In this document: positions 9,340 to 63,401 of the stretch, piece by piece
How the letters are laid out: the number at the start of each line of letters is the position of its first letter
How positions within the stretch are numbered: position 1 is the stretch's first letter
DNA from: Alphaproteobacteria bacterium
GTDB lineage: Bacteria > Pseudomonadota > Alphaproteobacteria > Bin95
DNA length: 64,000 bases
Direction of reading: 5' to 3'
NCBI GenBank assembly: GCA_965205265.1
Contig: CBDBGH010000003.1
Span: 3,808,001-3,872,000, forward strand
The notes under the pieces: generated by a model
What the model was told of the DNA's origin: nothing
Database searches by the model: none
The model's input: only the letters and a program-made list of their open reading frames with translations
Program-made: the position numbers and the translations under genes

Positions 9340-9423
9340 GTGGCCAGGGGCCAGTGGATAGTGGTTAGCGGTTGGCAGACCGCGACGAAACGCTATCCAC
9401 TAGCCACCATCTACTGACCACTA
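9339..9423. repeat. inverted array of 7-bp repeats (AGTGGNN) between convergent genes; probable bidirectional terminator
   Basis: AGTGGCC-AGGGGCC-AGTGGAT-AGTGGTT-AGCGGTT, a spacer, then ATCCACT-AGCCACC-ATCTACT-GACCACT. Confidence 0.7.
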
Positions 9424-9654
9424 CTCCGCGGGCGCAGCGGGCCGTTCGTTGCGGCCGACGATATAGGCTTCGAGGAAGTCCATCTTGCCTTCGAGCCGGC
9501 TCAGCCGGTCGCGGATTTCACGCATCTCCGCCTCGAAACCGTCCATGCGGGCGTCCAGCCGGTCCATACGGCCGCCGAGGCTTTGCTGTCCTTTCAGGAC
9601 GATGCCCGCCAGCGCAATGCCGACGCCAAGGATCGCAATCAGTTCGGGGGTCAA
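9421..9654 (-). CDS. small membrane-anchored coiled-coil protein (paralog of 7001-7357 and 54881-55123)
   Basis: TTG 9654 behind a GGAGG RBS (alternative ATG 9690). TPELIAILGVGIALAGIVL helix followed by a heptad coiled coil. Confidence 0.7.
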   Translation of the reverse strand: MTPELIAILGVGIALAGIVLKGQQSLGGRMDRLDARMDGFEAEMREIRDRLSRLEGKMDFLEAYIVGRNERPAAPAE

Positions 9655-9756
9655 GGATGTCCTCCCCAGCCACATGTTGCCGGCCGTCATGCGACCTTGC
9701 CGCGACCTGCGCCGGCAATCAAGGGAAATCCCTGCCCGCCCGGTCAGGGCTCCGCC

Positions 9757-10305
9757 CTATTCCGCCTTCCTGCGGTCCAGCAGGGCGGCGGCGAGCGCGG
9801 CGAGGCCGGGGGCGGGCTGGCCGGCGGCGAGCGCCTTGTCGCGCGAGCGCTCATGCACCGCCACCCCGAGCACCGCGAGCGCCACGCCCCACATGGCGCT
9901 GAGCGAGGCGGCCGCCGCCAGGATCGCCGGCGCGTCGGTCGGGTGCGCCATCACCGCCCAGGCGATGGCGGCCATCTGCAGCGCCCAGGCGGCCGTCACC
10001 GCATAGCCGAAGGTCGGCCGCCAGCGGCGCACATAGGCATCTTCCGTGCGGGTCTCGGCGCGCATGGTGGCGTTGACCTCGCGCAACGCGGTCTCGGCCT
10101 CGCGCGAGCGCGCCTTCACCTCGATGCGCCGGTTCGCGGCGTCGAGCGCTTCCGGGGCGACGCCGCCGTTCCTGAGCACGCCGTCCACCTCGCGCAGCGC
10201 CTTGGCGGCGGCATCGGCGGCCGGATTGTCGAGCGCCTCCAGACCTGCGCCCGCGAGGCGCGCGATCAGCGGCAGCCCGATCTGGGCGAGAAGTGCGGGA
10301 ATCAT
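9757..10305 (-). CDS. 3TM-type holin-like protein
   Basis: VNATMRAE...YVRRWRPTFGY followed by hydrophobic helices and LGVAVHERSRDK, as in GTA_holin_3TM-like proteins. Last gene of the virion operon. Confidence 0.75.
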   Translation of the reverse strand: MIPALLAQIGLPLIARLAGAGLEALDNPAADAAAKALREVDGVLRNGGVAPEALDAANRRIEVKARSREAETALREVNATMRAETRTEDAYVRRWRPTFGYAVTAAWALQMAAIAWAVMAHPTDAPAILAAAASLSAMWGVALAVLGVAVHERSRDKALAAGQPAPGLAALAAALLDRRKAE

Positions 10306-10319
10306 GGGTTCGTCCTTCT

Positions 10320-11780
10320 TCAGATGCGGAAATTGCTGCGGGCGCGGCCGGGCCGGGCGCCCCGCCGCCAGTCATTGCGGGGCGCGGGGCTCACCGGCGA
10401 AAGCCGCCATGGCTCCGCCAGCAGCGCGCCCGCCGCCGCGTCCAGCCCGTCGTCCCGCCCCCTGCCCTCGGGCCGCCATTCCCGCAATTCGCGCAGGAAG
10501 GGGGTCTCGAACACGCTCGCATGGGCGGAAAGCCTGCCCGCGGCCAGCGGCGCGTCGAAGGCTTCCAGAATGCGCTCATGCTTCGGGCGGTGGTTCTTTT
10601 TCTCCACCACCGACGCACCGTGCCCTTCCCGGCCGAGCTCTCCCTTCAGAATACCCGGCAGGAAGATCCCGACTCCGTTCGCTTCCACATAGACGACCGG
10701 CAGGAACAGCTCTCGCACATGCGCGGCCATCCGGCGGCAAAGCTGCGTCGCCGCGTCCTCGGAGTCTTCCGGTTCGCGATGGATATAGGCGACCCGGTGC
10801 AGCAGCCGCCGGCCGAGATCGTCGGTGAAGACGGCCGCCAGCACATTGGCGTCGCCCTTCTCCCGCTTGCCGTAGGCCGGGTCCCACCAGCCCGAGGCGG
10901 AAACCAGCCGCCGGCCTTCCAGCCACAATTCCGGCCGGCCGCCGGCCTCCCTGTATTCGAGCTCGCCCTCGTAACGGCGCAGCCAGTCCGCGTTCAGCCG
11001 GCCCTCCACCGCCTGCACGGGCTCCAGCAGCATCTGGCTCTCATAACGCGCGGGGCCTGTATGACGGCGGATTTCCGCAATCGCCGGCGACGGGTAGCGC
11101 GCCGGCCAGGACGCCTCGCGAAGCGGCTCCTCCTTCCGCCGGAAGCCCCAGAGGAAGGGCCGCTTCTCGTCCTCCTCCGGCCGCGGGTCTTTCGCATAGA
11201 TGGAGTAGTAGCTGTGCGGCGTGCCGCTGTAGATCCGGAAGCCGCCAGGGCTCAGCACATAGTCGATCTCGGAGAGCCGGGCGCGCAGGTCGGCCCGCTT
11301 CGCCGGCGTGCCGCAGGTGTTCGGCACCTCGACATCGTCGCAGATCACGACATCGGCATGCGCGCCGGTGATATTGGCGCCGATGCCGCGCGCCAGCAGC
11401 GAAGGGTCGCGCGAAACGGTCTTGCGCGAAACGGTCAGCCGGTCGGCCGCCCATTCCTCGGCCAGTTTCGGGCGCAGCGCCCCGGTGTCGGGATGGCGCT
11501 CCAGAATGCGGCGCACGGTGCGCACCATTCTGGCGGCGAGCGGCGTCTCCGCCGACAGCACCAGGATGCGCCGGTCGGGATCGCGCCTGAGCATCCACGC
11601 GGACAGCAGGCCGAGCAGGGTCGATTTGCCCGCGCCCCGGAAAGCCATCAGCAGCATTCGGCGCGCGCCCTCTGCGATCCGCCCGTCGAGCCATCCGGCA
11701 ATGCGCCGGTGGAGCGCCGGCGTCGCGATCCTCTGGGTCCGGTTCCAGGCGTCGAGGAAAGAGGAGAAGGTCGTGTCCAT
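10320..11780 (-). CDS. phage terminase large subunit
   Basis: Walker A AFRGAGKST, Walker B ICDDVE, coupling motif GTPH, and nuclease motifs WDPA, VEANG and DDGLDA. AAGGGAGG RBS before ATG 11780. Confidence 0.92.
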   Translation of the reverse strand: MDTTFSSFLDAWNRTQRIATPALHRRIAGWLDGRIAEGARRMLLMAFRGAGKSTLLGLLSAWMLRRDPDRRILVLSAETPLAARMVRTVRRILERHPDTGALRPKLAEEWAADRLTVSRKTVSRDPSLLARGIGANITGAHADVVICDDVEVPNTCGTPAKRADLRARLSEIDYVLSPGGFRIYSGTPHSYYSIYAKDPRPEEDEKRPFLWGFRRKEEPLREASWPARYPSPAIAEIRRHTGPARYESQMLLEPVQAVEGRLNADWLRRYEGELEYREAGGRPELWLEGRRLVSASGWWDPAYGKREKGDANVLAAVFTDDLGRRLLHRVAYIHREPEDSEDAATQLCRRMAAHVRELFLPVVYVEANGVGIFLPGILKGELGREGHGASVVEKKNHRPKHERILEAFDAPLAAGRLSAHASVFETPFLRELREWRPEGRGRDDGLDAAAGALLAEPWRLSPVSPAPRNDWRRGARPGRARSNFRI

Positions 11781-11836
11781 CGAACCTCCCTTGAATGGTG
11801 GATAGCGGCCGGCGGTCAGCGCTTCCCGGCCGGCGT

Positions 11837-12016
11837 TCAACGCCGGAGCGCGTCGATCTTCTCCGCCAGCACGGCGAGCGCGCGCGTATTGGCGACGATG
11901 ACGTCGAGCACCAGCTGGCGGCCGCGGGCATCGCGGTGCAGCAGCCAGACGGCAAGGCCCCAGCCGAGCGCGAGCGGCCCGTATTCGGCGAAGACCCTGA
12001 GCGCGAGCGTGTCCAC
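11837..12016 (-). CDS. small single-TM holin-like protein (BhlA/UviB-like)
   Basis: 59 aa: YGPLALGWGLAVWLL transmembrane segment then a coiled tail. Fills the gap in the virion operon. RBS is weak. Confidence 0.5.
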   Translation of the reverse strand: MDTLALRVFAEYGPLALGWGLAVWLLHRDARGRQLVLDVIVANTRALAVLAEKIDALRR

Positions 12017-12026
12017 GGGCCGCCCG

Positions 12027-12443
12027 TCAGCCGGTTCGCCGCGGCGCGCGAAGCGCGAGCAGCCCGCCCGTCCGGCGCAGGAGGCCCAGCCGTTCGAGCC
12101 GGTCTGCATGGGCGCTGTCGGCCCGGAGCGAGGCGAGGCGCCGCGAGGCGGCCGCCCCCGCATGACGGCCCTCCCGCTCGCTTTCGGCGGCAAGCCCGCC
12201 CAGCAGCGCGGCGGCCGAGCCGGCGTCGGAGCCGGTGCCGGCCGCGCCGAACCGGGCACGGGCGCGGGCCAGCGCCTGCTTCAGCCGGCGCCGCCGCAGG
12301 CGTTCGCGCTCGGCGGCGCCGGCGCGGACATCGGCGGCCTGCGCGCCCGCGGCGGCGCGGCGCCGGGAGGCCGCCTCGGCGGCGGAGGCTTCGGCGAGCA
12401 GGGCATTGCCCGCCGCCAGGGCTACGGGGAGAAGTGCGCTCAT
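12027..12443 (-). CDS. Ala/Arg-rich helical virion protein (putative small internal/ejection protein)
   Basis: Overlaps the tail tube B stop. ARARFGAAG..GSAAALL motif. Same position as podoviral small internal virion genes. Confidence 0.55.
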   Translation of the reverse strand: MSALLPVALAAGNALLAEASAAEAASRRRAAAGAQAADVRAGAAERERLRRRRLKQALARARARFGAAGTGSDAGSAAALLGGLAAESEREGRHAGAAASRRLASLRADSAHADRLERLGLLRRTGGLLALRAPRRTG

Positions 12444-14317
12444 ATGTCTGTCACCTTGAGTTCGGTTGCAGCGGAAAGGAGGTGGAAGGGAAGCGGGCTC
12501 TCATCCTCGATGCGCCAGAGCGGGGCCGCACCGTCGCGCCGCCAGCCGCCCGCGCCGAGCGAGACATCGCCGGTGAAGGCGCCGTCGCCGAGCGCGGCCC
12601 GGCGGAAGCCGAAGCCCGTGTCGCAGCGCAGCGCGCGGGTGCGGTCGAGACGGAGCGCCAGCCGCACCGCCCGGTGGGCCACGCCCTGCATCGCGCCCCG
12701 CGCAAGCTGGACGCCGGGCGGGAGCGGTTCGACCGTGTGGGTGAAGGGAAGCCCCGCCTGGACGGCGCGCGCCGGCGCGTCGAGCTGGATGCGCCCGCCG
12801 GAGACCCGGAGGCCCGAAAGCGCCTTGCCGTCGGCGACGGCGGCGACCTCCCGGCCTTCGAGATGGGCGAGGCCGCCCCAGGAGCGGGTGGGGTTCGCCG
12901 CCGTTCCGGCGACCGCGGCGTCCAGGCCGAGCGCCTCGTCGAAGCGCTCGACCGAATAGCGCCCGTCGCGCTCTACCAGCGCCCAGGCCCGGCCGCCCGC
13001 AACCGCCGCCGACCGGAAAGTCCCGTCGGTCTCCAGCCGCGTCCAGGCATGCACGCCCTCGGCCCGCCAGAGCGTGAGCGCGGCGATGGACCCGTCGCCC
13101 ATGACGACCGACAGCCGCCGGGCCGCCTCGTCCCAGACGATCTCGACCGGCGCGGCGAACAGGTGGCTGGCCAGCAGCGCCAGGTCCTGCGCCCGGTAGG
13201 CGAGCTCGGCATCCGCAAACAGGAACTCGCGCAGCTCGCGCCCGTTGCGGGCCAGGAACATCACGGCGCCCTCGACATCCACCGGCCGGACGGCGCGGTC
13301 GGCGGGCGAGCCGATGCGCGTCTGGCGGCGAAGCTGGATCGAGGCGGGCGTGAGCGGGTCGCCGGAGACGGTCCATTCCGCGCCCGAGGTGAATATCTGC
13401 AATTGCCGCCCGGACATGACCGCACGCACCGCATTCGCCTGGTCCGCCAGCAGCGGGAAGGCGATGGCCTCGTCGTCCAGCCCCTCGCCGGGGTCGAAGT
13501 CGAAATAGGCGCCCGAGCGTGAAAGCCAGAGCCGGTCCGGCAGCGAGCGCGATCCGCCGATCGCCAGCCTGTCCTGGTGGAACACGACCGAGACCGGCCA
13601 GCCGCGCCGGGCCGAAAAGGCAGGCTCCTGCCAGTCCGCGGTCGCCGCCGTGCCGCCCGCAAGCGTGCCCGTGACATCCGCCTCGGCCTCCGTCGCGGAG
13701 ACGACCCGGACGATCCGGACTTCGTCCTTGCCGATCCGGAAGGGCTGGCCCGCATCCCCCGCCGCGAAGACGCCGGCCGAGGCGGTGAGCCGGACGCGGC
13801 CCGAAGCCGCCGAGGCGGCCAGCGTCACCGAAGACGCGGCATAGCGGTGGTAGGGCTGCATCGACCGCCCGCCCCGCTCGGCCCATTCCCAGGGCGCGAT
13901 CCGCCAGTCGTCCTGCCCCCGGCGCGCCACGGTTCGCGGCGAATAGTCGGGATGGACGACCAGCAGCGTGTCGGCGGTCTGCGTCCAGTTGAGCCCGGCC
14001 AGATCGGCTTCCTTCCAGGGCGCGGCGACGAGCGCCGTCCGGACGCCGTTCCTGTAGATCCGGAGCGCCCGGTCGGTGAACAGCAGCAGGTAGCTCTCTT
14101 CCGTGTTGAACTCGAAGGCGGCGAGCCGGCCGGGGCCGGGCGCGGCCTCGACGAAGGCGAGCCCCGGCCGCCGCGAAAGCCCGCCCGTCGGGTGGACGGT
14201 GACATTGCGCAGCCGGCGCGCGCCGTCGCGATAGGCCGCGAGGTCGGGCCGTCCGGCGAGGCGCGGGCCGAGCTCGCCCGCGCTGAAATTGGTCTTGAGC
14301 GTGTTGATCCGGGTCAT
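12440..14317 (-). CDS. podoviral tail tubular protein B / nozzle (T7 gp12-like)
   Basis: N-terminal TNFSAGELGP..GR.D, NV.V.PTGGL.RRPG, and GWP..V.FHQDRL..GG...PD.LWLSRSG beta-propeller motifs. 625 aa. Confidence 0.82.
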   Translation of the reverse strand: MTRINTLKTNFSAGELGPRLAGRPDLAAYRDGARRLRNVTVHPTGGLSRRPGLAFVEAAPGPGRLAAFEFNTEESYLLLFTDRALRIYRNGVRTALVAAPWKEADLAGLNWTQTADTLLVVHPDYSPRTVARRGQDDWRIAPWEWAERGGRSMQPYHRYAASSVTLAASAASGRVRLTASAGVFAAGDAGQPFRIGKDEVRIVRVVSATEAEADVTGTLAGGTAATADWQEPAFSARRGWPVSVVFHQDRLAIGGSRSLPDRLWLSRSGAYFDFDPGEGLDDEAIAFPLLADQANAVRAVMSGRQLQIFTSGAEWTVSGDPLTPASIQLRRQTRIGSPADRAVRPVDVEGAVMFLARNGRELREFLFADAELAYRAQDLALLASHLFAAPVEIVWDEAARRLSVVMGDGSIAALTLWRAEGVHAWTRLETDGTFRSAAVAGGRAWALVERDGRYSVERFDEALGLDAAVAGTAANPTRSWGGLAHLEGREVAAVADGKALSGLRVSGGRIQLDAPARAVQAGLPFTHTVEPLPPGVQLARGAMQGVAHRAVRLALRLDRTRALRCDTGFGFRRAALGDGAFTGDVSLGAGGWRRDGAAPLWRIEDESPLPFHLLSAATELKVTDI

Positions 14318-14874
14318 GCCCTGGCCTCGATCAGCGGGAAACGGAGCGGCGCGCGCGCCGGGTCCTGGAGCGCGTCCGTGCGCCGGGCGCGGCGAAGCGC
14401 TGTGTCCGCCAGCCGCTGAAGCGCCTCCGCGCGGGACGTATTCTCCGTCACCGGCAGGCAGAGGGCGGCGGCGAGATGGGCGGCGAGCGCATCCGCGAAC
14501 CAGGGCGGGAACTCCGCCTCCCCGGCGCGGAAGACATAGGCGAGCCGGAGCGGGGCCGTATGGGCATGCAGCCTGCCGCCGGCGATGCGCCAGCCGGTTT
14601 CGCGCCCCTCCCCCACGGCCAGCGCATTCAGGAAACCGGCCGGCAGCCGGAAGGCGTGCGCGAAGCCGTCGAGCGGCGCCTCCGCCGCCGGCGAAAGCTC
14701 CGCCTCTGCCGTGGCGAAGCGCCAGGCATGGCCCGCAAGCAGCGTGTCGCGGAGGGTCGGATAGAGCGCGGCGGCGGTGCGCGCCTCGAGGGTCGCCTCC
14801 GCGAAGTCGGAAATCGGGAGCGCACCGAGCCGGACGAGCGCCTGGCTCGCGATCTGGACGGCGGTCAGCGCCAT
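14314..14874 (-). CDS. podoviral tail tubular protein A / adaptor (T7 gp11-like)
   Basis: QIASQALVRLGA.PI, LLAGHAWRFA and FPPWFADALA..LA motifs. AAAGGAGA RBS. Confidence 0.82.
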   Translation of the reverse strand: MALTAVQIASQALVRLGALPISDFAEATLEARTAAALYPTLRDTLLAGHAWRFATAEAELSPAAEAPLDGFAHAFRLPAGFLNALAVGEGRETGWRIAGGRLHAHTAPLRLAYVFRAGEAEFPPWFADALAAHLAAALCLPVTENTSRAEALQRLADTALRRARRTDALQDPARAPLRFPLIEARA

Positions 14875-14953
14875 GAGGGACGTCTCCTTTCTGGAATATG
14901 CGGGGATGGCGGATGGCGGCCGGTGGACATGCCGTCCACCGGCCGCCGGTCCG

Positions 14954-15313
14954 TCAGGCCGCCAGCACGCCGACCCGTTCGAGCGCGCGGATGACCGCGT
15001 TGACGGCGGTGCGCGCCTCGGCATCGACGGTTGCCCCGCCGGCCGCGTCGGCCACCGCCGCCTGGGTCTCCCAGTCGGTGGTGAAGCCGACCCCGACATT
15101 GCCGTTGCGGTTGGACGACACGCGGACCAGCGCCGCGCTGTCGTCCGCGCCGTTCAGCGCCAGCATGTCGCCGGGGCGGAGCAGGTCGGCGGCGCCGTTG
15201 AAATAGCCGGCCGCGGTCATGTCGCCGTCGGCGTCCTCGGCGGACTTGTAGTGCCAGAAGGTGAAGCCGTTGGCATAGGCCAGCACGGAGAGGTTTGCGG
15301 ATTTGAACGCCAT
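14954..15313 (-). CDS. putative capsid decoration / head fibre protein
   Basis: Immediately after the capsid gene with a strong RBS. LSVLAYANGFTFWHY..GYFN N-terminus and a C-terminal DAEARTAVNAVI.AL...G.LA trimer-like motif. Confidence 0.55.
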   Translation of the reverse strand: MAFKSANLSVLAYANGFTFWHYKSAEDADGDMTAAGYFNGAADLLRPGDMLALNGADDSAALVRVSSNRNGNVGVGFTTDWETQAAVADAAGGATVDAEARTAVNAVIRALERVGVLAA

Positions 15314-15341
15314 TGCTCGGGCGGTCTCCTTTCTGTTCCGG

Positions 15342-16160
15342 TCAGTTCTCGAGGCAGCGCATGGTCACGACGCCCTCGGCGTCGATCAGCACGGCGCCCT
15401 GGCTCATCCAGTTGGCGACGAACCAGGCGGCGCGGTCGCCATGCCAGGTGATGTCGGTGGTGACTTCCGCGCCGGCGGCGTGGCCGACCGCGCTCTTGTG
15501 GTACCAGTGGCAGAGCCGGACCGAGTTGCTGAGCGTCAGCCCCGAATGCGGCAGCCAGAGCGTGCCGAGCCAGCGCTTGGCCTGGGTGCCGCGCCAGGGC
15601 AGGTCCTCCGCGCCGACATAGTCGGCATTGGCGAACTCCTCGATCTTCATGAGGTCCGACCACTGCTTCCAGCCGATGACGGCCGTGCGCTCGCCGTCGT
15701 CCGGCACGTCGGCCTGGCCCAGCATCTCGAAGGCGGTGAGCACCTTGTCCTTCGTCAGCCCGTCCGTGTCGGTGCCGGCATGGTTGGTCGAGCCGTCGAG
15801 CGCGGCGGCGATGAGCTGGTCGGTCTTGCGGCCGAGCGCATAGGCGCCGGCCTTGGCGACCGTGTCGCGCTCGCCGCCGCCGATCTTGAGGTCGTCGAGC
15901 CGGTCCACCCACTCGCCGGCATAGTAGTCGCGGAGATTGCACTCGACCGCGGCGTGATCGACATTCATCACCGGGATCTGGCCGTGCCGGGCCTTGGTGG
16001 CGGCGGCGCCGCGCCCGACCTTGCGGAAGGTCACGCTGGAGCCCATGACGCCGCGGCGGGTGCGCACCGTGTCGCGGAGCTTGGAGCCCTGGCGCTGATA
16101 GGCGTTGTGGACTTCGCCTTCGAACGCCTTGATGAAGGAAGGGGAAAGATCGACGGGCAT
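15342..16160 (-). CDS. major capsid protein (HK97 fold, podoviral type)
   Basis: F...F..EVH.AYQRQGSKLR.TVR, AYALGRKTD.LI and MSQGAVLID.EGVV motifs. Follows the scaffold gene. AGGAGG RBS. Confidence 0.85.
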   Translation of the reverse strand: MPVDLSPSFIKAFEGEVHNAYQRQGSKLRDTVRTRRGVMGSSVTFRKVGRGAAATKARHGQIPVMNVDHAAVECNLRDYYAGEWVDRLDDLKIGGGERDTVAKAGAYALGRKTDQLIAAALDGSTNHAGTDTDGLTKDKVLTAFEMLGQADVPDDGERTAVIGWKQWSDLMKIEEFANADYVGAEDLPWRGTQAKRWLGTLWLPHSGLTLSNSVRLCHWYHKSAVGHAAGAEVTTDITWHGDRAAWFVANWMSQGAVLIDAEGVVTMRCLEN

Positions 16161-16212
16161 ATTGCCTGTCCTCCTGTTGTGGTTTCAGGGTTTACTGTGT
16201 GCCGGCCCTTTG

Positions 16213-16899
16213 TCAGGCCGGGCGGTCGTCGGGATTGTCCGTCCCTTCGCCCGGATAGAGGCGCCGGTAGCCCTCCATCACCTGCCGGACGAGGACGGGG
16301 TCGCGGTCGCGCCAGTAGCGGGGGTCGCCCTGGAGGCGGCGCAGGCCGTCGAGCGTCGCCGCTCCGGCCGCCCGGTCGCCGTCGCGGCCGCCGAGGCCGG
16401 GCTCGCCCGCATCCATCAGCCGCTCCAGCGCCACCGCGCCTTCGACCGAGCCGATGAGCGCGTCGCCCACGCCGGCGGGCAGGTTGGCCGCCGCCCAGGC
16501 CTCCATCTGGCCCTTCGCGCGCCGCCAGCCGTCCTCGCCGCCATAGCGGTCCGCGAGGCGGGCGTCGCGCTCGGCCCGCTCCAGCTCGCCCGCGACCTCG
16601 CCTGCCAGCGGCAGCAGCAGCGACGACGCCATGTCATAGACGAGCTGGACCTGACCGTTGGTGAAGCCGGCCTCGTGCATCCGTCGGTTGGCTTCCGCGT
16701 CCGGGCCGCCGATCAGGCCGTCCAGCTCGAGCCGATAGTCCTCCGGGCTCGCGGGCGGGCGCTCCGCCGAGGCCAGGGCTCCGTAGGCCCCGACCAGCTC
16801 GTCGAGACGCACTTGGCCGGCGTCGGCGTCCCAGAACTCGTCCGGCAGGCCGTCCGGGCGAACCGGCGCCTCCATTTCGGTTTCGTTGTCCGTTTCCAC
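16213..16899 (-). CDS. capsid assembly scaffolding protein
   Basis: RPDGLPDEFWD, P.SPEDY, GFTNGQ and DPRYWRDRDP motifs. Acidic. Lies between portal and capsid. GAAGGAGA RBS. Confidence 0.75.
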   Translation of the reverse strand: METDNETEMEAPVRPDGLPDEFWDADAGQVRLDELVGAYGALASAERPPASPEDYRLELDGLIGGPDAEANRRMHEAGFTNGQVQLVYDMASSLLLPLAGEVAGELERAERDARLADRYGGEDGWRRAKGQMEAWAAANLPAGVGDALIGSVEGAVALERLMDAGEPGLGGRDGDRAAGAATLDGLRRLQGDPRYWRDRDPVLVRQVMEGYRRLYPGEGTDNPDDRPA

Positions 16900-16937
16900 G
16901 GTGCGGTGTCTCCTTCATGTCTTCGGAGTGAGGGGTT

Positions 16938-16972
16938 GAAAGAAAACGGGCGGCCCCCGGAGGAGCCGCCCG
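16938..16972 (-). terminator. intrinsic terminator inside the virion operon, after the portal gene
   Basis: Minus strand reads CGGGCGGCTCC-TCCG-GGGGCCGCCCG followed by TTTTCTTTC. Confidence 0.75.
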
Positions 16973-17000
16973 CGCGGGAATTGCGGTGCGGTTCGCCTCG

Positions 17001-18446
17001 TCAGGCGGCGCCGGGCAGCAGGTCCGGCGGCTCCAGCAGGGCGGGCGGCACGCCGAGGCGGGTGCCGAGCCAGCGCGCGGCGCGGCCGGTATCGACGGCG
17101 GCCAGCGCCCCGGGCCCGAGCCCCGCCACGGCGCCCAGCCAGGTGAGCGCCGCCCCCGCCTCGCGCCGCCCGGCCGCCTGCGCCAGCGGCGAGCGCAGCC
17201 GGAGCCCCGCTTCGCGCCCGTCAAGCGCGAAGGCCGGGACCTCGCCGCGCCGGGCGAGGATGGAGAGCGCGCGTCCGATCAGCGGCGTCAGCAGCTCGGA
17301 CTCCAGACGCCCGTAGGTCGCGCCGAGCAGCCGCGCCGTCTCCGCCGAGCGCTCCAGCACCTCGGTCGCGGTCATGGCCGGGCTCGCGGGCTCGGCCAGC
17401 CGGTCGGCGAGCAGCGCGTGGCGGATGCGTTTGCGCAGGTCCTCCAGCACGAGCTGCGACACGTCGAAACGCCCCGGTGCGGCAAGCGGCGTCAGCCCCG
17501 CCGAGCCCACCGCCTTCGGCATGACCGCGCCCGGCACCAGCTCCACCGCCGTCGGGTCGAGCACGCCGTCATCGTCGGCCTGCCAGATGCCGGTCGCGGC
17601 GATCGAGGCGTTCTTCAGGATGAGCTCCACCACCTTGTCGGCGGTCTTGATATCGGGCAGCGCCTTCATCACCGGCGAGCGCCCATAGACCTCGCCCGGC
17701 GCCTTCAGCCAGCGGAAGCAGATGAAGGGCGAGACCGCGAAGCGGCCCTCCGCCAGCATTTGCGCCGCCCGGCCGCCGCCGCCTTCCAGCACCGCCAGAT
17801 AGCGGTAGCCGGCGCCCTTGAGTTCGGGCGCAACGCCCTCCACGACGCCGAACGGGCCTTCGCCGGAAAGAACCGGCGCGCGGGGAAAGCGGGCGCGGAG
17901 CGCGGCCGGGCCGAGCTCCCGCCGCCGCCACACCCGGTCGAGCCGCCCTTCCGGCCCCTCCTCCAGCACCGCTTCGCGAAGCGGCACGGCGGTGAAGCGG
18001 AAGGCCGAGGCTGCGCCGAGCGCGCTTTCCTCGAACAGCAGGCAGCCCGTGCCCAGCGCCACGAGGTCCAGCAGCGCCTGGTGCATCTCGACCGCAAAGG
18101 CGGAGCGGTCCAGATGGCCCTGCAGGGCCTCGGCCGCCATGTCCAGCATCTCGGCGCTTTCGGGACCCGCCTCCTGTCCCGGCTCGAAGCCGACCCAGCG
18201 CTCGAAGGGCGGCGTGAGTTCGGCGAGCAGGCTGGCGGCAAGCTGCTCCGCGGCGTCGGCGGCGGTGGCGTCGTAGATGCGCCCGGCGGCGCCGGCGCCG
18301 CCATCGCCATTGACCGCCCCACCCGTCCCGTAGGGAAGGGCATGGGCCGCGCAGTCGCGCCAGAGCGCCTCCCAGGGACGCCGCCGGGCCTCGGCGCGGC
18401 GGTAGCCCGCCAGCAGAACCTCCGGATCCGGTGTTTCGGCAATCAT
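17001..18446 (-). CDS. podoviral portal (head-to-tail connector)
   Basis: IYDATA..A...LAA.L...LTPP...W, DLVALGTG, RW.K.PGEVYGRSP...ALPDIK and MTATEV.ER motifs. Confidence 0.9.
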   Translation of the reverse strand: MIAETPDPEVLLAGYRRAEARRRPWEALWRDCAAHALPYGTGGAVNGDGGAGAAGRIYDATAADAAEQLAASLLAELTPPFERWVGFEPGQEAGPESAEMLDMAAEALQGHLDRSAFAVEMHQALLDLVALGTGCLLFEESALGAASAFRFTAVPLREAVLEEGPEGRLDRVWRRRELGPAALRARFPRAPVLSGEGPFGVVEGVAPELKGAGYRYLAVLEGGGGRAAQMLAEGRFAVSPFICFRWLKAPGEVYGRSPVMKALPDIKTADKVVELILKNASIAATGIWQADDDGVLDPTAVELVPGAVMPKAVGSAGLTPLAAPGRFDVSQLVLEDLRKRIRHALLADRLAEPASPAMTATEVLERSAETARLLGATYGRLESELLTPLIGRALSILARRGEVPAFALDGREAGLRLRSPLAQAAGRREAGAALTWLGAVAGLGPGALAAVDTGRAARWLGTRLGVPPALLEPPDLLPGAA

Positions 18447-18450
18447 GTGT

Positions 18451-18465
18451 GTTCCCTTCATGTTC
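18451..18465 (-). promoter_or_regulatory. alphaproteobacterial LexA (SOS) box overlapping the portal RBS
   Basis: GTTC-CCTTCAT-GTTC, an exact GTTC-N7-GTTC, 4 nt upstream of ATG 18446. Confidence 0.7.
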
Positions 18466-18515
18466 TAGACCATCCTACCCCATGTTTCTGATTTGTTAAC
18501 CCAGCGCGAGAAACG

Positions 18516-18938
18516 TTACCCATTATCGAGGAGGAAATCGTGCAACTGGCCGGGCGTAAGCACCCGCCAGGAGGCAATTCCGAGCACCCGCTTGGCCACT
18601 TCGACGCAGGTGGCGGGCAAGAGCGGCGCCGGGCGGAAGCGCCGCCGCCGCCGTGTCTCGACCACGGTGAAACCCCGCTCGCGGTAGAACCCGGCAAGGT
18701 CGAAGGCCGCCGGCACGGGCTGCACCGCGACATCGGTATAGCCGGCCAGCGGATCGACCGTGATCCAGCGCCCCGCCTCCTCCAGCGCGACGAAGCAATG
18801 GCGGAACCCCGGCCGGAGCAGCCGGAGCCAGCCGAGGTCCGCCTTGCCGGAAAACACCGCGAGCGCCCGCCCGCCGCCATTCGTAACGTTCGCCGCGTTG
18901 CGCGCGGCTGCGCCGTTGTGCCCGGAACTGCCCGTCAT
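18516..18938 (-). CDS. conserved hypothetical protein of the phage-like cassette (possible permuted papain/NlpC-like fold)
   Basis: WLRLLRPGFRHCFV and TCVE..KR.LG......TP.QL motifs. Overlaps the stop of the upstream gene. Confidence 0.65.
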   Translation of the reverse strand: MTGSSGHNGAAARNAANVTNGGGRALAVFSGKADLGWLRLLRPGFRHCFVALEEAGRWITVDPLAGYTDVAVQPVPAAFDLAGFYRERGFTVVETRRRRRFRPAPLLPATCVEVAKRVLGIASWRVLTPGQLHDFLLDNG

Positions 18939-19303
18939 GCCGCGGCCCCCCGGCGTCCGGAGCCGCCGCCGGCAACGATCCCCTTGGCGCGCAGCAGCTC
19001 CTCCAGCCGCGCCATGCCCTCTTCCCAGAGCCGGGCGAGCGGGCCGTGCGCCGGAGCTTCGAGGCGGCGGCCGAACCCGGTCAGCACCTGCAGGTGCCGC
19101 CGGGTGAGCACACCGGGCTTTACCAGCCGGCGCAGGCAGGCCAGCATGTCGAGCGGCGTGCAGGGCCGGCCACGGCCCTCATGGCCCGGCACGCCGCCAT
19201 CCTCGACCACGAGGCGCCAGGACATGAACCAGAACCAGGCTTCTTCGGCGTTCCTGAACGGCTTTTCGCCGCCGGAGCCTCGCGAAAAATCGGGAACAGG
19301 CAT
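18935..19303 (-). CDS. conserved hypothetical protein, candidate activator/antiterminator of the cassette
   Basis: PF.NAEEAWFWF...RPC.P.D...L.RL...LW.E.M.RL...LRAKGIV. First gene of the operon, divergent from the repressor. Function is inferred. Confidence 0.65.
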   Translation of the reverse strand: MPVPDFSRGSGGEKPFRNAEEAWFWFMSWRLVVEDGGVPGHEGRGRPCTPLDMLACLRRLVKPGVLTRRHLQVLTGFGRRLEAPAHGPLARLWEEGMARLEELLRAKGIVAGGGSGRRGAAA

Positions 19304-19316
19304 GAATCCCCCATCT

Positions 19317-19331
19317 GTTCTTTGAATGTTC
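19317..19331 (-). promoter_or_regulatory. alphaproteobacterial LexA (SOS) box
   Basis: GTTC-TTTGAAT-GTTC, 13 nt upstream of ATG 19303. Confidence 0.7.
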
Positions 19332-19396
19332 CGATTTTGCCTATGTGGTCAAATTCCTAGTGCATGTCAAGCGGATTTGTGCCTATGATGAATTCC

Positions 19397-20026
19397 ATGC
19401 TGACCCATTCCGAAGTCTGGGCCGCGATCGACGCGCTGGCGGACCATCACGGCCTGTCGGTATCCGGGCTCGCCAAGCGGTCGGGGCTGGATGCCACCAC
19501 TTTCAACCGCAGCAAGCGGACCACCAGGGGCGGGCGGCCGCGTTGGCCCAGCACGGAGAGCATCTCCAAGGCGATGGCGGCGACCGGCTGCGGCGTTTCG
19601 GGGCTGTTTGCCGAGCAATTGCGCCGCGAGGGCGCGCCGGCGAGTACCATCCCGGTGATCGGCCACGCCCAGGCGGGCCTCCACGGCTATTTCGACGATG
19701 CCGGCTACCCGGTAGGCGCGGGATGGGACGAGGTCGCTTTCCCGGACCTCGGCGACCCCAACGCCTATGCGCTGGAGATCGCGGGCGACAGCATGGAGCC
19801 CGTCTATCGCGACGGGGATATCGTGGTGGTCTCGCCGGCGGCCAGCCTCCGGCGCGGGGACCGCGTGGTGGCGCGCACCCGCGAGGGCGAGGTGCTGGCC
19901 AAATGGCTCGGCCGGCTGGGCGCGCGGCGTATTGAGCTGCATTCCTTCAATTCCGACCATGAGGACTACGTCCTCGCTCGAAGCGACCTCGACTGGATCG
20001 CCCGTATCGTCTGGGCCAGCCAGTAG
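19397..20026 (+). CDS. HTH + S24 peptidase (CI/LexA-like) repressor
   Basis: MLTH..VW.AID.LA...GLS.SGLA..SGLD.TTFN.SKR HTH, AQAG autocleavage site, GDSMEP catalytic Ser and VLAK catalytic Lys. Confidence 0.9.
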   Translation: MLTHSEVWAAIDALADHHGLSVSGLAKRSGLDATTFNRSKRTTRGGRPRWPSTESISKAMAATGCGVSGLFAEQLRREGAPASTIPVIGHAQAGLHGYFDDAGYPVGAGWDEVAFPDLGDPNAYALEIAGDSMEPVYRDGDIVVVSPAASLRRGDRVVARTREGEVLAKWLGRLGARRIELHSFNSDHEDYVLARSDLDWIARIVWASQ

Positions 20027-20092: not shown

Positions 20093-20761
20093 TTGACCGG
20101 AACTCATATCGATTGCCACCCGAACACTCTTCCCCCGCCCCGGGCCGGCGCGGTCCGGCGGTGGCGGGCCGGGCTGGCGGCGCTGGCGGAGCGGGATGCC
20201 CGTATCCGGATGGCGCTGGCCGAGGTCGGGGCGCCGCCCATGGCGCTCAGGGGGGCGGGCTTTGCGGCGCTCTTGCGGGCGATTGCGGCGCAGCAGGTTT
20301 CCGCCGCCTCGGCGCGGGCGATCTGGGGCCGGCTGGAGGAGGCTGCGGGCGGCAGGGTGACGGCGCGCGCCGTGCTGGCGCTCGGGCCGGAGGGGCTTCG
20401 CGCCGCCGGGCTCTCGCGGCCCAAGGCGGGTTACGCGCTCGACATCGCGGGGGCGCTTGCCTCGGGGCGGGTTTCGCTCTGGCGCATTGCGCGCATGCCG
20501 GATGAGGAGGCCGTCGCCGCCCTCTCGGCGCTGAAGGGCGTCGGGCGCTGGACGGCGGAAGTCTGGCTCCTGTTCGCGGCCGGCCGCCCCGACATCTGGC
20601 CGGCGGCCGACCTCGCGCTCTGCATCGCGCTCCAGAGAACCCTCGGCCTGGACGCCCGCCCGACGCCCGCCGAGGCGGCGCGCCTCACCGAAGCCTGGTC
20701 GCCCCACCGCAGCGCCGCCGCTATCCTCCACTGGCACATCTACCGCACCGCGCCTTCCTAG
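20093..20761 (+). CDS. alkA: DNA-3-methyladenine glycosylase II (AlkA family)
   Basis: QQVSAASA, HhH motif LKGVGRWTAE, PAADL and WSPHRS. Start is uncertain. Confidence 0.85.
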   Translation: MTGTHIDCHPNTLPPPRAGAVRRWRAGLAALAERDARIRMALAEVGAPPMALRGAGFAALLRAIAAQQVSAASARAIWGRLEEAAGGRVTARAVLALGPEGLRAAGLSRPKAGYALDIAGALASGRVSLWRIARMPDEEAVAALSALKGVGRWTAEVWLLFAAGRPDIWPAADLALCIALQRTLGLDARPTPAEAARLTEAWSPHRSAAAILHWHIYRTAPS

Positions 20762-61964: not shown

Positions 61965-63401
61965 ATGACATCGACGATCTCGCTGCCGGTCTGGTTGTTC
62001 GCCGTCATCGTTGCGCTCGCGGTGCTGGCGGTTGTGGACGACGTGTTCATGCCCGGCCTGCGCTGGTATCTGCGCCGCCGGGTCAACCGCGCCATCGCCG
62101 AGGTGAACGCCCGCTTCGGGCTGGAGCTGCCGACCTTCCAGCTGACCACCCGCCGGGTGCTGATCGACCGGCTCGTCTTCGACCCCGAGGTCATGAAGAC
62201 CGTGGGCGCGGTCGCCGCCGAGCGCGGCGAGGAGCGCGAGAGCCTGATGGCGGAGGTCTCCTCGATCGCCCGCGAGATGGTGCCGGCCTTCAACGCCTAT
62301 TTCTATTTCAAGCCGGGCTTCCACTGCGCCCGCCGGCTGCTGCGCGGCTTCTACAGGGTCCGGCTGGGTTTTGCGCATGAGCGCGCCGCGGCGCGGGCGC
62401 CGCCGGACACCGCCGTCGTCTTCTTCATCAACCACCGCAGCAATGTCGATTACCTGCTGGTGACCTATCTCGCGGCGCGCTCCGTCGCGCTGTCCTACGG
62501 CGCCGGCGAATGGGCGCGCGTCTGGCCGATCCGCAGCCTGCTCAGGCTTGCCGGCGTCTATATCCTGCGCCGCGATTCGGGCGATCCGCTCTACCGCAAG
62601 GTGCTGGAGCGCTATGTGCAGATGGCCACCGAAGCCTGCGTGCCCCACGCCATCTTCGCCGAGGGGAGGCTCTCCCGCGACGGCATGATCCGCCAGCCGA
62701 GGCTCGGCATGCTGGGCTACATCACCAAGAATTTCGACCCGGCCGGCGCCTATGACATCGAGTTCATTCCCGTCGCGACCAATTTCGACCGCGTGATGGA
62801 GGAGCGCACGCTCGTCGCCGATCCCGACGCCGATTTCAGGGGCCGCGGCGGCCGGTTCGTGTTCGGCTCGACGGCCCGCTTCCTCGCCCGCATGGCCTGG
62901 CGGAAACTCCAGGGCCGGTTTGCCGGTTTCGGGGTCGCCTGCGCCAATTTCGGCGAGCCGGTCTCGCTGAGGGAGTGGGCGGGCGAACGGGGGCTGAACT
63001 TCTCCGAGCTCGACCGGGAATCGCTGTTCGCCGCGGTCGAGGAGCTGGGCGAGGAGCTCACGCGCCGCATCGTCGATGTCGTGCCGGTGCTCGCCGTGCC
63101 GCTGGTCTCGACGGTGCTGGTCGAGGCCGACGGGCCGCTGGATGGCGAAGCGATAAAACGCCGCGCCCTCGAATGGCTCGATGAAGCCCGGGCGCTCGGT
63201 GCCCATATCGCGCTCAGGGACGGCGGCGAGGCCGCCGACATCGAAAGGGCGGTGCAGGCCTTGCGCAAGCGGCGGCTGATAGCGGAACGGGAGGGCGGCT
63301 TCGCGCCGGAGGACCGCCAGCGCCCGCTGCTCGCCTACTACGCCGCCTCGATCCAGCAGCTTCGCACGCATCTCGAGCAGAAACGGGCCCGCCCTGAATA
63401 G
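61965..63401 (+). CDS. glycerol-3-phosphate acyltransferase-like (PlsB/PlsC family)
   Basis: NHRSNVD and FAEGRLSRDG motifs; N-terminal TM. Confidence 0.85.
   Translation: MTSTISLPVWLFAVIVALAVLAVVDDVFMPGLRWYLRRRVNRAIAEVNARFGLELPTFQLTTRRVLIDRLVFDPEVMKTVGAVAAERGEERESLMAEVSSIAREMVPAFNAYFYFKPGFHCARRLLRGFYRVRLGFAHERAAARAPPDTAVVFFINHRSNVDYLLVTYLAARSVALSYGAGEWARVWPIRSLLRLAGVYILRRDSGDPLYRKVLERYVQMATEACVPHAIFAEGRLSRDGMIRQPRLGMLGYITKNFDPAGAYDIEFIPVATNFDRVMEERTLVADPDADFRGRGGRFVFGSTARFLARMAWRKLQGRFAGFGVACANFGEPVSLREWAGERGLNFSELDRESLFAAVEELGEELTRRIVDVVPVLAVPLVSTVLVEADGPLDGEAIKRRALEWLDEARALGAHIALRDGGEAADIERAVQALRKRRLIAEREGGFAPEDRQRPLLAYYAASIQQLRTHLEQKRARPE

Follow-up and report, generated by a model that had tools for sequence, protein, structure and literature searches.

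Putative host LexA operators at two predicted promoters of a podovirus-derived, gene transfer agent-like cassette in an alphaproteobacterium

Are the structural genes of a captured phage wired directly into the DNA damage (SOS) response of the bacterium that carries them? This question is raised by a stretch of 64,000 nucleotides (nt) from an alphaproteobacterium of the GTDB lineage Bin95 (GenBank assembly GCA_965205265.1, contig CBDBGH010000003.1, positions 3,808,001 to 3,872,000, forward strand; hereafter the window), in which a cassette of podovirus-type virion genes carries two exact copies of the direct repeat GAAC-N7-GAAC (GTTC-N7-GTTC on the opposite strand). Box 1 precedes the portal gene and reads GAACATGAAGGGAAC on the gene strand and GTTCCCTTCATGTTC on the plus strand, while box 2, which reads GAACATTCAAAGAAC on the gene strand and GTTCTTTGAATGTTC on the plus strand, lies in the control region between the first gene of the cassette (the lead gene) and a divergent gene for an S24 (LexA/CI-like) repressor. 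Both boxes are in the same orientation and exact on the minus strand, the strand that also encodes the portal and lead genes; an earlier note on this DNA, made from the sequence alone, had reported these positions and orientations correctly. We consider it likely that the boxes are operators of the host LexA and that LexA, together with the S24 repressor, locks this 10-kb, podovirus-derived and vertically inherited cassette through direct repression at two promoters. The cluster would then probably be switched on directly by DNA damage.

The relation of the boxes to the ribosome-binding sites was also as described earlier. The spacer of box 1 contains the Shine-Dalgarno sequence AAGGGA and the box ends 4 nt 5' of the portal ATG (18446), while box 2 ends 13 nt 5' of the lead-gene ATG (19303), directly 5' of a GGGGGA ribosome-binding site. 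An in-frame ATG at 18461, inside box 1, is not conserved, the related loci L011 and L013 reading AAAGAGG there. The description of the boxes as sitting at translation starts holds insofar as both are near an ATG, but the landmarks of relevance are the predicted transcription starts. The sigma-70 type promoter predicted for the portal operon was the only promoter-like match in 18300-19500, compared to 0.1 expected, and box 1 starts 6 nt past its TAGGAT. Similarly, box 2 starts 10 nt past the CACATA of the promoter predicted for the lead gene, of which TTGAC and CACTAGGAA are kept in relatives. Both boxes would cover the predicted transcription start and leader, a placement that would be relevant to a DNA-binding repressor. 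A degenerate box-like site over the portal -35 (Table 1) ranks 28 genome-wide on a matrix trained on host boxes and is possibly a weak tandem site.

The number of boxes alone is not significant, with three perfect matches in the window versus 1.00 expected and at least three in 10 of 100 shuffles; the third match (62985-62999), which has a GC-rich spacer and lies within a coding frame, looks like a chance occurrence. Genome-wide, 120 perfect GAAC-N7-GAAC sites were present in 5,699,834 bp, 68 of them inside genes predicted by a crude codon-usage caller, the predictions of which span only 78% of the chromosome. Since the window count is insufficient, the case rests on the comparison with other genomes. 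The evidence that the two boxes are nonrandom consists of their placement after a predicted -10, their conservation in orthologs, their recurrence in distant cassettes and a high score on the host matrix.

Absence of the boxes from orthologous loci had been named in the earlier note as an observation that would refute the proposal; the boxes proved to be conserved, both of them within the genus and the lead-gene box far beyond it. Among the 13 genus relatives that include the portal 5' end, box 1 was perfect in eight and had one mismatch in the other five, so that all 13 retain it within one mismatch. In an alignment of this region across the genus, the -35, the -10 and both GAAC blocks are conserved, while the sequence varies over the 5-6 nt that separate the -10 from the box, over most of the spacer and over the 4-5 nt directly 5' of the ATG. 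Box 2 was within one mismatch in 9 of the 11 genus relatives with enough upstream sequence; it was perfect in five, with six different spacers overall, and had a single mismatch (second half AAAC) in four. Within the genus, half-sites that are kept amid drifting spacers and flanks (4-6 nt) suggest the footprint of a binding site.

The cassette with its S24 repressor is widespread. A capsid profile search found relatives in more than 534 genome contigs of Rhodospirillales-type Alphaproteobacteria, with named hosts including Azospirillum, Niveispirillum, Elioraea, Oleisolibacter, Telmatospirillum, Magnetospirillum, Ferruginivarius, Rhodovibrio and Roseospira; the best 80 loci were fetched and examined. 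A homolog of the lead gene was present in 34 of these 80 (33 homologs were aligned or listed), and 18 of the 34, three of them of this genus type, have a perfect box, read as GAAC-N7-GAAC or GTTC-N7-GTTC, in the 200 nt that precede it. The density of boxes upstream of the lead gene was 2.65 per kb compared to 0.032 per kb in the remaining 502 kb of these loci, an approximately 83-fold enrichment, and 2000 shuffles gave a mean of 0.19 and a maximum of 3 for the count of 18 out of 34, figures that overstate the case because related genomes are not independent. The box-bearing hosts span about ten genera, named or unnamed, and include Ferruginivarius, Elioraea, Oleisolibacter, Telmatospirillum, two Azospirillum species and several metagenome-assembled genomes. 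Where a TTGAC was recognizable the box starts 20-39 nt after it, over or just past the -10, and both orientations occur. Two Azospirillum species carry a one-mismatch box where A. soli has a perfect one.

The second level of the wiring claimed in the earlier note, at the portal gene, proved to be narrower than the first. A perfect box in the portal interval was found in only 4 of the 37 loci evaluated, three of this genus type and L164, in which it lies at another spot, directly after the gene for a 140-amino-acid protein that follows the lead gene. Outside the genus, a small extra gene separates the 140-amino-acid gene from the portal gene and a second promoter precedes this extra gene. The lead-gene box thus recurs across lineages, but the portal box is confined to this genus.

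The motif itself is the alphaproteobacterial LexA operator, as the earlier note had stated; the definition for Caulobacter and the SOS promoters of the host agree on this. According to Table 1 of PMC9578287, the Caulobacter SOS box is GTTCN7GTTC, and this direct repeat is described as common to Caulobacter and related bacteria (PMC9578287; 10.1101/2025.01.26.634973). The comparison with the recA and lexA boxes of this genome that the earlier note had proposed bore this out, with perfect boxes in the promoters of lexA1 (GAACCAATATAGAAC) and lexA2 (GAACTTATATAGAAC) and a box with one mismatch at recA (GTTCCTGAAATATTC). An operon resembling imuA-imuB-dnaE2 (imuA-like, Y-family-polymerase-like and dnaE2-like genes) carries a perfect box (GAACAAATATTGAAC) between its -35 and -10, and single-mismatch boxes were present at dinB and ssb. 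The organism may have a small SOS regulon. All 17 genomes of the genus retain the lexA box and 15 of the 17 the recA box, the other two loci being truncated. On a weight matrix derived from the 17 unique lexA/recA boxes of the hosts, without any cassette box, box 2 ranked 19 among 11,399,584 genome positions, with 18 above it, while the host recA box ranked 22. Compared to the canonical boxes at lexA, recA and imuA-imuB-dnaE2, the cassette boxes share the same tetranucleotides, the 7-nt spacing and a placement that overlaps the promoter, but the host boxes overlap the -35/-10 spacer or the -10, whereas those of the cassette lie just past the -10, over the start site and leader.

The same correspondence was observed in other hosts. 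The lexA promoters of five box-bearing hosts contain a GAAC-type box (perfect in four of the five) as well as a second, GTTC-type box; in the host of L146 this second box is GTTCCGGTATTGTTC, compared to GTTCCGCATTTGTTC in the cassette. In six genomes, the half-site and spacing of the cassette motif are identical to those of the hosts' own lexA operators. Since host lexA promoters carry the same type of box, the cassette boxes follow the operators of their own hosts.

Several additional features of the host motif were observed. At ssb, one-mismatch boxes overlap as GTTA-N7-GTTC-N7-TTTC (the uvrA/ssb regions examined were 1376815-1377500 and 1379700-1380300 of contig C3 in this genome, G000). 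The lexA2 gene (C3:5303208-5303879; L002/L106) is a paralog that shares 67% identity with lexA1 and has a perfect box of its own; among the 17 genomes of the genus it is present in this one only, and the sequence of its box was also found at C3:357674. GAACATATATAGAAC, or a close variant of it, is carried by copies of an IS630-like element (HTH_32 / HTH_Tnp) at C3:739920, 1678657 and 185831, with near-copies at C3:2545556, 1246111 and 4090318. At C3:739920 the GAACATATATAGAAC-type box is located between a TTGACA and a -10, and the transposase may be controlled by LexA, or the box may be part of the element end. One-mismatch genome matches with AT-rich spacers were considered as evidence and dropped, as non-SOS genes prevailed among the neighbors of 20 candidates (DAHP synthase, a sigma-70 factor, integrases, dehydrogenases, luciferase-like enzymes and helix-turn-helix proteins of IS630-like transposases) and only dinB fitted.

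A number of observations weigh against LexA control of the cassette. Box 1 scores a modest 12.9 on the host matrix compared to 19.7 for box 2, with 206 of the 11,399,584 genome positions ranking above it, and part of its conservation has another cause, as its spacer is the ribosome-binding site. No box within one mismatch was found upstream of uvrA; together with the mostly non-SOS neighbors of the one-mismatch matches with AT-rich spacers, this makes the motif by itself a weak predictor. Both promoters are predictions, and that of the lead gene was missed by a stricter scan of 18300-19500. Box 2 is gone or decayed in 2 of the 11 genus relatives (L012 and L015), and the box is lacking in a clade that comprises the sister genus and its kin (L063, L064, L119, L133, L134, L141, L143, L150 and L151), indicating that LexA control is dispensable. 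The non-independence of the related genomes behind the enrichment counts here as well. Finally, the S24 gene always adjoins the box, which leaves its product a candidate binder.

This last point leads to a competing explanation, namely that S24, the repressor encoded by the cassette itself, and not LexA binds the boxes as its operators and that damage is sensed only via S24 cleavage. The S24 protein, with its start at MLTH set by homology, consists of an N-terminal helix-turn-helix-like domain and a C-terminal autopeptidase domain, in which it shares the catalytic-serine motif YALEIAGDSM with the host LexA. It is encoded beside box 2 in every cassette that bears this box, and it is usual for a local repressor to bind within the divergent control region that adjoins its gene. 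Its distribution, on the other hand, does not follow that of the boxes. S24 was present in 35 of the 80 fetched loci (52-88% identity), and all nine large loci, including the boxless L063 and L064, encode it at full length (62-88%). Its N-terminal domain (MLxHxDxWxAIDxLAxxxGLSxSGLAxxAGLDxTTFNKSKR...RWPSTES) is nearly unchanged with or without a box; box presence thus does not track S24. This domain gave no match to or alignment with the DNA-binding domain of LexA (LexA_DNA_bind), and the GAAC motif corresponds to the lexA operators of the hosts in the six genomes mentioned above. Helix-turn-helix phage repressors, moreover, usually read inverted rather than direct repeats. Finally, the element that is widely shared among the control regions is not the GAAC repeat but CACTAGGAA with TAGGA: TAGGAA is present in 23 of 34 cassette control regions, and CACTAGGAA with further copies of TAGGA constitutes the most widely shared word. 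With these observations combined, we regard S24 operators as an unlikely identity for the boxes, and CACTAGGAA / TAGGA as a candidate site for S24 or for the lead protein.

Further features of this control region were apparent. The sequence CACTAGGAA(T), which lies in the -35/-10 spacer of the lead promoter (19352-19361), is kept from the genus to distant families, and the second promoter has TAGGA(A/T)T as a recurring -10. The lead promoter is flanked, at 19335-19345 and 19377-19387, by a direct repeat with copies 42 nt apart, TT(T/G)TGCCTATG; its second copy overlaps ATG codons 5' of the S24 start, and the repeat is loosely conserved in relatives.

A further possibility is that LexA binds box 2 but mainly controls S24, or both divergent genes, and thereby tunes the supply of repressor. 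The box reads GAAC-N7-GAAC in the S24 direction in many distant cassettes, and the RNA data offer a weak hint in the same direction. These data consist of assembled contigs of relatives only (90-99% identity), from which transcript starts are unreadable. One RNA-library contig (X1) spans the whole cassette, with DNA in that library being possible, while two samples of a single study (X2 and X3) yielded contigs over S24 only (19316-20013), their absent cover elsewhere being uninformative. Both X2 and X3 contigs end at 19316, one base from box 2; this weakly hints at the 5' end of S24 and would put box 2 at S24 positions +2 to +16. Contig ends are not transcript ends, however, both runs belong to one study, and no convincing -35/-10 was seen by eye to the left of 19316. 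In addition, the box is tied to the TTGAC promoter of the lead gene at 20-39 nt in all cassettes, whereas its distance to the S24 start varies, and box 1 has no S24 gene nearby. Control aimed mainly at S24 therefore appears quite improbable.

It is very improbable that the boxes bind nothing and arose by chance or as by-products of other constraints such as a ribosome-binding site, the AT-richness of promoter DNA or structure in the mRNA leader, for even though the window count is not significant, box 1 overlaps a ribosome-binding site and 68 of the 120 perfect boxes lie in coding DNA, the boxes show the 83-fold local enrichment with no shuffle near the observed count, occupy the same place relative to the promoter in many lineages and both orientations, and keep their half-sites while their neighbors drift.

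With the boxes read as host LexA operators, the mechanism that we infer, from LexA binding and the S24 operator to the role of the lead protein and the production of particles, would operate as follows. The lead promoter would drive the lead gene and the 140-amino-acid gene, while the internal promoter would drive the genes from portal through holin, and a LexA dimer occupying one of these boxes would prevent transcription from being initiated or from leaving the promoter. The site of S24 would probably be another conserved element, the repeats of CACTAGGAA / TAGGA. With two RecA-sensitive repressors silencing it, the cassette would fire only after DNA damage; the lead protein may then activate the structural operon, and the output would be podovirus-like particles and holin-driven lysis.

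The lead and 140-amino-acid proteins had no Pfam, PHROG or NCBIfam match and matched only unnamed clusters in the Atlas. A profile of the lead protein had no sequence match in the PDB, and Foldseek returned none at E <= 0.001. Its AlphaFold model consists of four helices (predicted local distance difference test score, pLDDT, 85), and a wide structural search gave weak, tied matches at Z 5.0-6.2 to Q21, the AlpA-loaded complex 7xyb and many sigma region-4 domains, values that are below the search's own caution line and can reflect common arrangements. The lead protein is possibly a transcription factor, either sigma-region-4-like or Q/AlpA-like.

Table 1. Coordinates of the cassette, its predicted control elements and adjacent genes (window numbering)
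Feature	Position	Strand	Remarks
89-amino-acid gene	9421-9690	-	
Three-transmembrane holin	9757-10305	-	PF11351, GTA-named Pfam family
Large terminase	10320-11840	-	
Small internal virion protein	12027-12443	-	
Nozzle / tubular B	12440-14317	-	
Tail tubular A	14314-15099	-	
119-amino-acid gene	14954-15313	-	
Capsid, T7-type	15342-16160	-	PF19821
Scaffold-sized gene	16213-16899	-	
Portal (head-to-tail connector)	17001..18446	-	PF12236, E 3.6e-118; phrog_332; T7-type
Box 1, putative LexA operator	18451..18465	-	over portal transcript start and ribosome-binding site
Portal operon promoter, predicted, sigma-70 type	18472..18499	-	TTAACA, 16 nt, TAGGAT; promoter scan
Degenerate box-like site TAACAAATCAGAAAC	18484..18498	-	over portal -35; 33 nt start-to-start from box 1
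Second gene, 140 amino acids	18516..18938	-	conserved in all cassettes examined
Lead gene, 122 amino acids	18935..19303	-	four-helix protein
Box 2, putative LexA operator	19317..19331	-	divergent S24 / lead-gene control region
Lead-gene promoter, predicted	19342..19370	-	TTGACA, 17 nt (TGCACTAGGAATTTGAC), CACATA; read by eye
S24 (LexA/CI-like) repressor, 209 amino acids	19397..20026	+	PF00717, E 1.5e-21; divergent from lead gene
HhH-GPD (alkA-like) glycosylase	20093-20761		next to S24

Closer examination of the gene content agreed with the suggestion in the earlier note of a cassette resembling a gene transfer agent (GTA). The cassette (9421-19303) contains no integrase, replication gene, tail fiber or large internal core protein and is flanked by metabolic genes. 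A portal match was present in all 16 other genomes of the genus as well as in all 10 sister-genus genomes, the gene order is kept in six relatives from the genus, in two genomes of the sister genus and in one from another family, and three of the six genus relatives share the same flanking metabolic genes. The ratio of nonsynonymous to synonymous substitution rates (dN/dS) of the capsid gene relative to the window was 0.115-0.199 in six of six within-genus pairs, indicating purifying selection. Phage structural genes that are chromosomal, lack replication and integration genes and are inherited vertically under purifying selection are features of GTAs, and the cassette looks domesticated or GTA-like. 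The alkA-like gene that the earlier note had drawn into this picture does follow the S24 gene here, but it adjoins S24 in only one of six genus relatives and is probably an unrelated host gene outside the system.

Some variation was noticeable among the relatives. In three genomes of the genus (G005, G016 and G008) the portal is split into two matches and in G001 a 40-residue fragment was found; these matches indicate decay of the cassette in some lineages. Between nozzle and terminase, approximately 4.5 kb that this genus lacks are present in the sister genus and in the other family.

The nearest phage capsid was that of a Pelagibacter podophage (44.5% identity). Portal, capsid and tubular tail proteins are T7-like, which sets them apart from the head-tail cluster of the GTA of Rhodobacter capsulatus (RcGTA), the holin being the only match to a GTA-named Pfam family (PF11351). 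To our knowledge, Rhodospirillales-type bacteria are outside the known range of RcGTA, and our literature searches found no description of a podovirus-type GTA in them. It is possible, and we propose it only tentatively, that a new family of domesticated podovirus (T7 / HTVC019P-like) particle genes constitutes a second, unrelated alphaproteobacterial GTA that is inherited vertically across many Rhodospirillales-type lineages and fired on DNA damage by a double lock of LexA and S24.

After mitomycin C treatment, Azospirillum sp. B510 and A. lipoferum are reported to release particles that contain approximately 10 kb of DNA, with no 10-kb prophage described as found in the B510 genome (PMC2818188, PMC3899980). 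The cassette could be the source of these particles. The A. lipoferum-type loci (L120-L132, L138, L153, L158, L166 and others) contain capsid, nozzle and terminase genes; the portal, S24 and lead genes were not found within 8 kb upstream, and no promoter-placed boxes were observed, which makes the link a loose one. The cluster may be split in these genomes.

Among known regulatory systems, the PrtR/PrtN (pyocins) and AlpR/AlpA (lysis) modules of Pseudomonas aeruginosa each pair an autocleaving S24 repressor with a divergently encoded small activator of phage-derived genes and are induced by DNA damage. The cassette has an S24 protein with the catalytic-serine motif divergent from a small lead gene and would resemble these modules if the lead protein is a transcription factor, its similarity to such proteins being weak (Z ~5). 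The output of these modules is tailocins or lysis and not capsids, and we know of no host LexA boxes at their structural promoters.

In the Rhodobacterales, the SOS regulator LexA likewise influences GTA production (PMC6473078): in R. capsulatus LexA is described as affecting RcGTA indirectly, via the cckA promoter (Kuchinski 2016, cited in PMC6473078), and LexA sites have been predicted in silico in the GTA cluster of Dinoroseobacter shibae (PMC6473078). These GTAs are derivatives of HK97-like siphoviruses without an adjacent S24 gene, whereas the boxes described here lie at the cassette's own promoters.

The earlier note had further regarded the wiring of virion genes into the SOS regulon as unlike that of a normal prophage late operon. 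A precedent exists in phage GIL01 of Bacillus thuringiensis, whose late promoter P3 is reported to be repressed by LexA at tandem boxes (PMC6182141). The likeness extends to both levels, as host LexA boxes are described at the upstream regulatory promoter (P1) as well as at the virion and lysis promoter (P3) of GIL01 (PMC6182141), and late expression is reported to need a small phage-encoded factor (PMC6182141, PMC4551915). GIL01, on the other hand, is a replicating tectivirus that has no dedicated repressor and uses the co-repressor gp7, whereas the chromosomal, podovirus-derived cassette has no replication genes and carries the alphaproteobacterial direct repeat. A dedicated S24 was present in every cassette examined, which differs from the LexA-only control of lysogeny in GIL01. 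LexA at late virion promoters, as in GIL01, and SOS-controlled tailocin or lysis modules are thus a known theme, and these are the closest cases to the arrangement described here.

If LexA binds these boxes, the cassette would be a clear natural case of a host exerting direct SOS control over the structural promoters of a domesticated phage, a control that would have arisen, shifted its place, changed orientation and disappeared repeatedly in different lineages, with the repressor of the element itself remaining constant. It would offer a tractable system in which to study how hosts rewire captured phage genes and whether DNA damage triggers the release of particles or gene transfer in Rhodospirillales-type bacteria.

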